Assembly: GCF_053078305.1 (NCBI RefSeq)
Contig: NZ_CP166879.1
Length of the DNA stretch: 64,000 nucleotides
Direction: 5' to 3' (one strand)
In this document: positions 26,686 through 27,003 of the stretch, in pieces
Numbering within the stretch: the first letter of the stretch is position 1
Layout of the letters: every line of letters starts with the position of its first letter
Notes under the pieces: model-generated
Told to the model about the DNA's origin: nothing
The model's input: the letters and a program-made list of their open reading frames with translations, nothing else
The model's database searches: none
Position numbers and translations under genes: made by a program

Positions 26686-27003
26686 ATGACCAAACCATCA
26701 ACTATAGCCGGAACAGCAGGCGCTTTGGCAACTGCCGGTACTGCAGCCTCAACAGCATCAACCGTTGCAGGTGCATCAGCTGCAACAATTATGTCAGCGA
26801 CAGCAGGAACAACAGGAGCAGCTCTGGCTTCCGTTGCAGGCGCATCCGGTACAGCAGGCGCAGCAGCAATTTCATCAGGTATGGCAGCGATTGGTTCCAC
26901 TGTTGGTGGTGGGATGGCTGCCGGTGCGGTAATTACTGCAGCAGCGCCTGTTGCGATTAGTGCAGCCGTCATTTATGGGCTGGTTAAAATATTCAAAGAT
27001 TAA
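26686..27003 (+). CDS. Ala/Gly/Thr-rich small hydrophobic protein (uncertain coding status)
   Basis: 105-aa ORF with AGGA 8 nt upstream; low-complexity A/G/T-rich with hydrophobic C-terminal tail; ORFs also open in other frames, so it may be spurious. Confidence 0.3.
   Translation: MTKPSTIAGTAGALATAGTAASTASTVAGASAATIMSATAGTTGAALASVAGASGTAGAAAISSGMAAIGSTVGGGMAAGAVITAAAPVAISAAVIYGLVKIFKD

Follow-up and report, generated by a model that had tools for sequence, protein, structure and literature searches.

The locus and the encoded protein

The 64,000-nt stretch of contig NZ_CP166879.1 (RefSeq assembly GCF_053078305.1) analysed here, referred to as the window, carries on its plus strand an open reading frame (ORF) of 105 codons, 26686..27003, which runs from ATG to TAA and encodes the protein MTKPSTIAGTAGALATAGTAASTASTVAGASAATIMSATAGTTGAALASVAGASGTAGAAAISSGMAAIGSTVGGGMAAGAVITAAAPVAISAAVIYGLVKIFKD. 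RefSeq lists this product as WP_000165753.1, 'hypothetical protein', and the identical coding sequence is called by the Prokaryotic Genome Annotation Pipeline (PGAP) in identical or near-identical Escherichia coli loci. Downstream of it, and convergent with it, lie two minus-strand genes of a contact-dependent inhibition (CDI) locus: cdiI (27611..28048), encoding an Imm63 protein, and cdiA (28023..37733). A first-pass annotation made from the sequence had described an Ala/Gly/Thr-rich 105-residue ORF convergent with the cdi genes, and its coordinates, composition and orientation agree with the present analysis.

The protein consists to 71% of four small residues (34 Ala, 16 Gly, 14 Thr, and 11 Ser). 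Its only charged residues are K3, K101, K104, and D105, so that a stretch of about 97 residues is free of charge. The hydrophobic C-terminal tail described at first pass is borne out by Kyte-Doolittle averages over 19 residues, which reach 1.7-2.1 only at residues 77-100 and are evenly mild (0.4-1.4) over the remainder. Codons 77-100 (26914..26985, plus strand; MAAGAVITAAAPVAISAAVIYGLV) form the single strongly hydrophobic, transmembrane-capable segment and lie within the best-predicted AlphaFold helix. GxxxG motifs are found at residues 70-74 and 76-80 (GSTVGGGMAAG), followed by P88; the protein contains 47 small-xxx-small-xxx-small triplets, while its strict GxxxGxxxG run is short. Based on an alignment of 56 sequences, AlphaFold predicts four helices (residues 4-27, 32-50, 59-72, and 76-104) with a mean predicted local distance difference test (pLDDT) score of 64 and a predicted template modelling (pTM) score of 0.37, the pLDDT rising to about 80 for the helix 76-104. 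A model built from 22 sequences was poor (pLDDT 54). Neither a signal peptide nor a double-glycine leader is present at the N-terminus of the protein (MTKPSTIAGTAG), and the family consensus shows no leader pattern either. The lack of a double-glycine leader had been noted at first pass.

The plausible ribosome-binding site of the earlier description corresponds to a Shine-Dalgarno-like AAGGA at 26673..26677 (plus strand), 8 nt 5' of the ATG. Further upstream, a consensus scan found a sigma-70 promoter-like sequence, TTTACC-18-TAAAAT, at 26603..26632 (plus strand), which matches the consensus in 9 of 12 positions. This is weak evidence for a promoter; the scan returned two overlapping sites against 0.9 +/- 0.9 expected. 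The site lies inside a block of homology (26542..27260, plus strand) that comprises the gene and its own upstream region, and that is common to E. coli loci with differing upstream genes. The limits of this block were given by megablast break-points at positions 243 and 961 of the query 26300-27400.

Coding status and strand

Judging from its pattern of substitution, the comparison of reading frames shows 26686..27003 (plus strand) to be a real protein-coding gene under strong purifying selection. Conservation of the frame and the ratio of non-synonymous to synonymous substitution rates (dN/dS), one of the checks proposed at first pass, were examined in homologous loci. Two variants from E. 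coli (loci L009 and L010) differ from the window in 19 and 23 of the 318 nt and in only 3 and 4 amino acids. In the sense frame, this amounts to 15-18 synonymous and 3-4 non-synonymous changes, with a dN/dS of 0.08, and 15-17 of the changes fall on codon position 3. The other frames of the plus strand give values of 0.9-3.7 in the same comparison. The pattern is kept over much larger distances: across 18 loci of distant bacteria, variability at the three codon positions is 0.16/0.13/0.53, and the other plus-strand frames are only about 25% identical. The sense start and length are kept in 18-19 loci from distant phyla, and in 14 of 19 family loci the start is preceded, at a distance of 5-8 nt, by a Shine-Dalgarno-like motif. 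Length variants stay in frame, as seen in a 13-codon deletion in E. coli STK78-E and in shorter forms from Escherichia albertii and metagenomes.

The first-pass annotation had considered the coding status uncertain because ORFs are open in two other frames over the same DNA. Both ORFs exist: one of 100 codons in the +2 frame (26658..26960, plus strand) and one of 107 codons on the opposite strand (26649..26972, minus strand). It could accordingly be argued that 26686..27003 is a chance frame in GC-skewed repeat DNA, or that the antisense ORF is the true gene. Besides the three open frames, this alternative can draw on the antisense dN/dS, which is also low (0.10-0.17 between the E. coli variants), and on the choice made by PGAP in E. 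coli ETEC1734 (L043, NZ_CP122801.1), where the antisense ORF is annotated at 3964-4332 (minus strand) as WP_047656238.1, a protein of 122 residues, although the sense gene is intact there.

The low antisense value has a simple cause, since the wobble positions are common to the sense and antisense frames. Likewise, the antisense ORF is open in every homologue because stops can arise in it only opposite Tyr codons or TCN codons preceded by T. As dN/dS alone does not separate the two strands, the quality of the replacements and the conservation of start and stop were used instead. At changed non-wobble positions of the 18 loci, the mean BLOSUM62 score is +0.31 for the sense frame and -0.95 for the antisense frame, where replacements are non-conservative. 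The antisense start is not conserved, and the most conserved segment of the sense protein, the YGLFKLFED-type end, falls together with the stop codon outside the antisense ORF. The +2-frame ORF, in turn, has a dN/dS of 0.87-1.30, is only 26% identical among family loci, and is interrupted by many stops in homologues. Both other open frames over 26686..27003 are, by these measures, products of composition and not genes, and the non-gene or antisense explanation appears extremely improbable. The doubt expressed at first pass is understandable, in that PGAP itself annotates the strands inconsistently, but dN/dS, homologues, replacement quality, and the conserved start, stop and Shine-Dalgarno motif all favour the plus-strand ORF. 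This settles an annotation ambiguity in which the same DNA has been annotated on opposite strands in different RefSeq genomes.

A small family with a patchy distribution

Sequence searches place the 105-residue protein in a family that has few members, is sharply conserved, and is described in none of the libraries consulted. A word-indexed search returned 38 relatives, most of them unnamed. When 1.84 billion cluster representatives were searched exhaustively with a profile, 337 matches had E<1e-3, of which 43 had E<1e-10 and 5 had E<1e-30; since so few matches remain at strict thresholds, the family in the strict sense is small. The exact window protein is absent from a collection of 15 billion proteins. 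Pfam gave no match even at E<=10 for the window protein or at E<=5 for 56 family members, and for the same set NCBIfam returned only noise, and PHROGs and PADLOC nothing. A sequence profile search of the PDB produced chance matches only (E ~1). Literature searches on the accession, on LRAT with glycine zipper, and on LRAT domain with bacterial effector found nothing relevant.

When about 100,000 species were scanned, each with a single genome, around 15 full-length copies came to light. Some of these are in E. albertii, Xenorhabdus mauleonii, Photobacterium lutimaris, Ferrimonas sediminicola, and Lacimicrobium alkaliphilum. Further ones are in Acinetobacter rathckeae, Oleispira, Herbaspirillum, Massilia, two members of Sulfurovum (Campylobacterota), and Cetobacterium (Fusobacteriota). 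Full-length homologues thus occur in Gamma- and Betaproteobacteria, Campylobacterota, and Fusobacteriota, and additional full-length copies are found in Thermomonas fusca and Vibrio splendidus.

Despite this spread, the window protein is 54-81% identical to 21 other members of the family. These are 100-111 residues long, begin with Met and a Lys-containing start (consensus MSKxxKxST...), and end right after the YGLFKLFED-type segment. The family motifs are SAATIMSATAG, AAISSGMAAIG, a VGGGMAAG core, AAAP, and the conserved end, and the window protein fits all of them. Residues G29, G74, G76, M77, G80, A86, and G98 are invariant, and the invariant or nearly invariant positions gather in ...SGMAAIGSxVGGGMAAG...AAAP...YG.... 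The combination of a patchy distribution with very high conservation is a signature of horizontal transfer and strong constraint. What emerges is a compact, very strongly conserved small-protein family, with a membrane module, that is covered by no curated library. We regard it as very probable that the ORF is a real membrane-protein gene of a new family.

A module shared with LRAT and XRE proteins

The larger part of the protein, codons 30-105 (26773..27000, plus strand), was delimited by profile searches and alignments as a conserved module. It contains two SAAxIxSxxAxxG-type motifs, the core VGGGMAAG...AAAPVA, and the tail YGLxKxF(K/E)D. Profile positions ~30-108 also match the C-termini of proteins of 200-600 residues. 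Among 54 such longer matches, 25 hold an N-terminal LRAT (lecithin retinol acyltransferase) domain (PF04970, with the NCEHF catalytic motif; best E = 8e-28), and two an XRE-type helix-turn-helix (HTH) domain. In the first layout the LRAT domain is followed by two tandem modules, and in the second the HTH domain is followed by a linker and a single module. The profile matches show the module to be, on the criterion of alignment, the same as the C-terminal tail, often duplicated, of bacterial LRAT-domain proteins and of some XRE-HTH proteins.

One of the LRAT fusions, MCI0428595.1, is named 'lecithin retinol acyltransferase family protein' by NCBI. Two tandem C-terminal modules were also observed in the LRAT proteins P0046, P0058, P0081, P0106, and P0116 and at locus L021 (5833-6681), from Nitrospiraceae, Myxococcales, and others. 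This architecture appears to be uncharacterised and is not modelled in Pfam. The genomic contexts of one LRAT fusion and of one two-module protein were uninformative.

LRAT/PLAAT proteins are membrane-anchored at their C-terminus, and for this reason the module is taken as a putative tail-anchor-like unit for membrane insertion and self-association. The window protein itself shows an internal resemblance between SAATIMSATAGTTG and AAAISSGMAAIGST, both of which resemble SAAGITSGLAAIG of the longer fusion proteins. It therefore looks like two related units without a head domain.

Relation to the cdi locus and the thrW island

The gene had been placed inside a repeat-bracketed cdi module. A search for repeats bracketing such a module found none. 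The only bracketing repeats in the window are two direct repeats of 63 nt, 97% identical (5326-5388 and 51229-51291), which represent the 3' end of tRNA-Thr(CGT) (51246-51321, minus strand) and bound a 45.9-kb thrW genomic island, which we take to be of the CP4-6 type. The integrase of the island is encoded at 5518-6873. Besides cdiBAI, the island carries CbtA/CbeA, an antirestriction gene, Ag43, a GTPase, a type III-like methyltransferase/helicase pair, a BRO-N gene, DprA, and a TOTE conflict-system primase. The immediate left neighbours of the 105-codon gene are the type III-like restriction-modification (R-M) pair and the BRO-N (anti-repressor-like) gene.

Since the gene adjoins cdiI and cdiA, not only in the window but also in several genomes of E. 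coli, it might be considered an orphan toxin, immunity or accessory gene of the adjacent CDI locus. Its orientation speaks against this, as it is encoded on the opposite strand and is parted from cdiI by a 607-nt spacer with a remnant of an IS66 tnpC gene. Orphan toxin/immunity modules of CDI systems stand downstream of cdiBAI on the same strand, with a toxin fragment that follows a VENN/pre-toxin region and with a paired immunity gene; the window gene has no VENN pre-toxin region. In addition, CdiI is an Imm63 protein that fits its own toxin, and the 105-codon gene is present without cdi in the E. coli loci L010 and L011 and in all other genera. A function within the CDI system is hence barely credible. 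The only tie of the gene to cdi is the common thrW island, and the claim that it belongs to a cdi module has to be abandoned.

The IS66-family tnpC remnant (27048-27420) takes up a large part of the spacer. Hundreds of E. coli genomes have copies with about 88% identity to it, and it explains why the flank is matched by ~870-1,020 E. coli genomes, depending on the query. A 41-residue 'hypothetical protein' annotated by PGAP at 27228-27353 (minus strand) lies inside this remnant.

In E. coli, the gene region occurs in 89 of 5,426 complete genomes, and only 34 hold at least 80% of it. To the left of the 26542-27260 block, other E. coli loci carry hsdR genes from various type I systems, or else the type III/BRO-N set. 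To the right, they carry cdi, orphan cdi fragments, type VI secretion system (T6SS) remnants, or insertion sequence (IS) elements.

Mobile and conflict-associated contexts in other bacteria

Members of the family occur patchily in distantly related bacteria, where they reside on mobile DNA or on DNA linked to conflict. In Thermomonas, the gene adjoins an integrase and a Card1 CARF nuclease, and in Vibrio it comes last in a Mob/GPA element that has inserted into comM. The Cetobacterium copy adjoins CRISPR-Cas and HSP70/VWA/kinase genes, that of Acinetobacter type I R-M genes, and those of Sulfurovum and Herbaspirillum Ankyrin-HisKin-conflict/iREC genes. A MobA/MobL relaxase accompanies the homologue in a metagenome-assembled Proteobacteria genome (L015), while an mza (Z1) system and integrases are found at other loci.

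Extrachromosomal and phage-borne copies are also known. A blastn search found one plasmid with a homologue and no phage record, and a search of IMG/VR added six prophage contigs. The plasmid (CP056477.1, from Enterobacter cloacae) is an 8.2-kb, mobilizable, ColE1-like replicon on which the homologue is the third in a trio of genes for small membrane proteins (L037 6787-7806). The other two members of this trio are a TM2/'NINE' protein with a zinc ribbon, which comes first, and a 105-residue zinc-ribbon protein with a glycine-zipper core of its own. Five of the IMG/VR contigs (L044 5845-6312; L045-L048) represent one mEp237-like lambdoid prophage, in which the gene forms a moron-like insert in the nin region, between the O replication genes and NinB. 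The prophage version is 155 residues long, with a charged N-terminal extension of 50 residues.

At the X. mauleonii locus (L018 3001-8312), the gene is part of an island with VgrG, a VRR-NUC effector and TsiV immunity, and a 94-residue PAAR protein is encoded directly upstream of it. This arrangement, together with the T6SS remnants near the gene in E. coli L010, raises the idea that the protein is a T6SS cargo, for example a small membrane-targeting effector loaded via PAAR or VgrG. The PAAR link, however, rests on a single locus, most loci (plasmid, prophage, and R-M islands) lack T6SS genes, and there is no immunity partner, all of which makes a T6SS cargo very unlikely.

An all-against-all comparison of the neighbours at 18 loci, which included small ORFs with filtering switched off, revealed no partner kept beyond close relatives.

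Comparison with bacteriocins and other small membrane proteins

The composition of the protein had been likened at first pass to that of Gly/Ala-rich microcin-type peptides. The comparisons below are made by described features for CdzC/CdzD, EsxX, the CDI ionophores, the microcins, and the prophage 'moron' proteins, and by sequence profile for the LRAT proteins.

Class II microcins (MccV, H47, M and similar) require a double-glycine leader, a C39-ABC exporter with its partner protein, and an immunity gene. The leader is about 15-20 residues long, ends in GG, GA or GS, and has a conserved hydrophobic/acidic pattern. Class II microcins are Gly/Ala/Ser-rich, unmodified, membrane-active small proteins of Enterobacteria, a description that may suit the window protein as well; leader, exporter, and immunity gene, on the other hand, are absent at the window gene.

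The other group to which the protein could be compared is that of the glycine-zipper, contact-dependent bacteriocins CdzC/CdzD of Caulobacter. According to Garcia-Bayona et al. (2017; PMC5380434), the criteria for such proteins include (i) a length of 60-151 residues, (ii) type I secretion genes next to the gene and a secretion leader whose end is G[G/A/S], and (iv) a C-terminus that is short and either charged or polar. The window protein resembles CdzC/CdzD in its length of 105 residues, its C-terminus (...KIFKD), a content of small residues close to the ~70-75% of these proteins, a putative GxxxG-type zipper, and an island-associated, horizontally acquired gene. It differs from them in that no leader-like N-terminus was found, and no type I secretion genes either in the island or at the other loci. 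It also lacks an immunity gene, its family is far more conserved across phyla, and no sequence homology between the two could be detected.

These likenesses would allow the protein to be exported, either as a class II microcin or as a contact-dependent bacteriocin of the Cdz kind. It is of suitable size, rich in Gly, Ala, Ser, and Thr, with a GxxxG core and a short charged C-terminus, and one copy resides on a small ColE1-like plasmid next to two other small membrane proteins. The machinery that such proteins depend on is nevertheless missing. The N-terminus (MTKPSTIAG...) holds no double-glycine leader, and the sole semi-conserved GG (...AVVGG|SAAT, around residue 33) lacks the hydrophobic/acidic leader pattern and reads GAS in E. 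coli. No C39-peptidase/ABC, HlyD, TolC, or immunity gene is annotated in the 46-kb thrW island, the 103 proteins encoded around 15 of the loci show no recurrent Pfam family of exporters or immunity proteins, and no neighbour, large or small, is conserved across the 18 loci. An identity of 54-81% across phyla is also unlike that of fast-evolving bacteriocins. The resemblance to Gly/Ala-rich membrane-active peptides is thus real, but an exported microcin or Cdz-like bacteriocin is highly improbable.

Glycine-zipper membrane-depolarising domains are also known from polymorphic toxins, namely the C-terminus of EsxX (PMC12258717) and the CdiA-CTs of CDI ionophores (PMC11630599). They share with the window protein small-residue zipper helices proposed for the cytoplasmic membrane and a location in interbacterial conflict loci. 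They differ in belonging, as C-terminal domains, to large toxins that are delivered and have cognate immunity proteins, whereas the window protein would be stand-alone and made in the cytoplasm, with no immunity gene; the likeness drawn here concerns these features.

The prophage 'moron' proteins for superinfection exclusion, such as T4 Imm, HK97 gp15, and P22 Sie, have ordinary transmembrane helices rich in Leu, Ile, and Phe. The window gene resembles them as a single gene for a small, putative inner-membrane protein with its own expression signals, and its family is likewise found as cargo in a lambdoid prophage early/nin region and in islands. Unlike them, the window protein lacks helices of the Leu/Ile/Phe-rich type and shows no homology, and by this analogy an exclusion role would be putative.

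Type I toxin-antitoxin toxins are very small (usually <60 residues), hydrophobic, and repressed by a cis-encoded or overlapping antisense RNA. The 105 residues of the window protein are an atypical size for this class, and an Rfam search of 25000-28500 returned sub-threshold noise only and no small RNA; an antisense RNA may nonetheless be made at the locus.

Only for the bacterial LRAT/PLAAT proteins (H-box/NC, NlpC/P60 superfamily) does the resemblance extend to homology, as their C-termini match the module, often twice in tandem. The window protein differs from them in having no catalytic H-box/NC (His...NCEHF) LRAT domain and would represent the membrane module alone. On the strength of the profile matches, the tails of these uncharacterised bacterial LRAT proteins are the closest true homologues of the window protein.

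Proposed role of the protein

The explanation towards which we lean is that of a stand-alone, self-associating glycine-zipper protein of the inner membrane, carried as accessory cargo by mobile elements and acting as a conflict or exclusion factor in the membrane of the producer. According to this model, the protein would insert into the cytoplasmic membrane of the producing cell via its tail-anchor-like module, and the helices of the module would pack through small-xxx-small (glycine-zipper) contacts, leading to self-association. The stand-alone protein would then correspond to two module units without a catalytic or DNA-binding head. The resulting oligomer may alter the permeability of the inner membrane when triggered, or may block the entry of foreign DNA, phage, or toxin. 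It would thereby work as a single-gene conflict or exclusion factor rather than as an exported bacteriocin. The conflict role, taken by itself, is a tentative proposal.

Several points weigh against this model. In about 55 of the 89 E. coli genomes with the gene region, only the first 171 nt of the query are kept and the match breaks beside IS debris; one E. coli copy holds an IS21 insertion, and another the 13-codon deletion mentioned above. Such frequent damage indicates that the gene is dispensable in E. coli. At the level of the protein, AlphaFold confidence is only moderate, as seen from the mean pLDDT and pTM given above, and a Foldseek search of the model against the PDB found no structural neighbour. 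Hydrophobicity is low outside residues 77-100, and the N-terminal 75 residues might therefore not be embedded in the membrane. The neighbourhood of defence islands is an association, every functional step proposed for the protein is inferred, and the occurrence of the module as a tail of enzymes and regulators is equally in keeping with a harmless anchor and with an effector that acts on the membrane.

In a sharper form of the same model, the protein would be a membrane-depolarising, pore-forming toxin that stays silent until triggered, serving as a single-gene effector of abortive infection or addiction and working in the manner of CdzC/D, the EsxX C-terminus, or the CDI ionophores. Its composition and glycine-zipper core are like those of known membrane-active toxins (PMC5380434, PMC12258717, and PMC11630599), its gene resides on mobile elements and within islands for defence or competition, and the module is fused to LRAT-type lipid-acting enzymes. 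On the other side, no immunity or antitoxin neighbour is conserved across the 18 loci, no PADLOC model matches, and XRE regulators, for which a lethal tail would be strange, end in this very module. A triggered pore is on balance doubtful. We consider it somewhat less probable still that these proteins make up a new class, namely glycine-zipper membrane proteins with neither leader nor partner that are borne by phages, plasmids, and islands. Each would act alone as a conflict factor in the inner membrane of its producer, either by forming a trigger-dependent pore in abortive infection or by keeping phage DNA or membrane-targeting toxins out, and the module would serve bacterial LRAT-type lipid enzymes as a unit for membrane attack or anchoring.

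Going back to the broader model of a glycine-zipper cargo protein in the producer's own membrane, the new family, its mobility across phyla, and the module shared with LRAT proteins make it a cheap and testable candidate for either a new single-gene membrane-acting conflict factor or a membrane-anchoring unit. If the protein should merely be a passive, anchor-like membrane protein, the value of these observations would be limited to better annotation.

Other features of the island

The cdiB gene of the window (37746..39512, minus strand), which encodes the CDI exporter, carries around position 39233 a 1-nt insertion after nt 280 of the gene, together with two other mismatches, in comparison with the intact cdiB of E. 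coli STEC17-190 (588 residues). The remaining frame of 494 residues lacks the N-terminus, and cdiB may be a pseudogene here, or the insertion may be a sequencing error. The CdiA protein encoded at 28023-37733 is named 'contact-dependent inhibition effector tRNA nuclease' in RefSeq. Matching orphan C-terminal fragments are annotated as TNT (glycohydrolase), with Imm63 as immunity, and the RefSeq product name may be wrong.

The TOTE conflict-system gene at 41641-44025 (minus strand) encodes an archaeo-eukaryotic primase/helicase and lies beside DprA-like and inovirus Gp2-like genes. Two direct repeats of 294 nt, 76% identical (46843-47136 and 47319-47612), are located at and just past the 5' end of a DUF3987/YfjI-family gene (45678..47132, minus strand). 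They probably represent a duplication of part of this gene, as the RefSeq annotation has a fragment of a DUF3987 pseudogene at this place.

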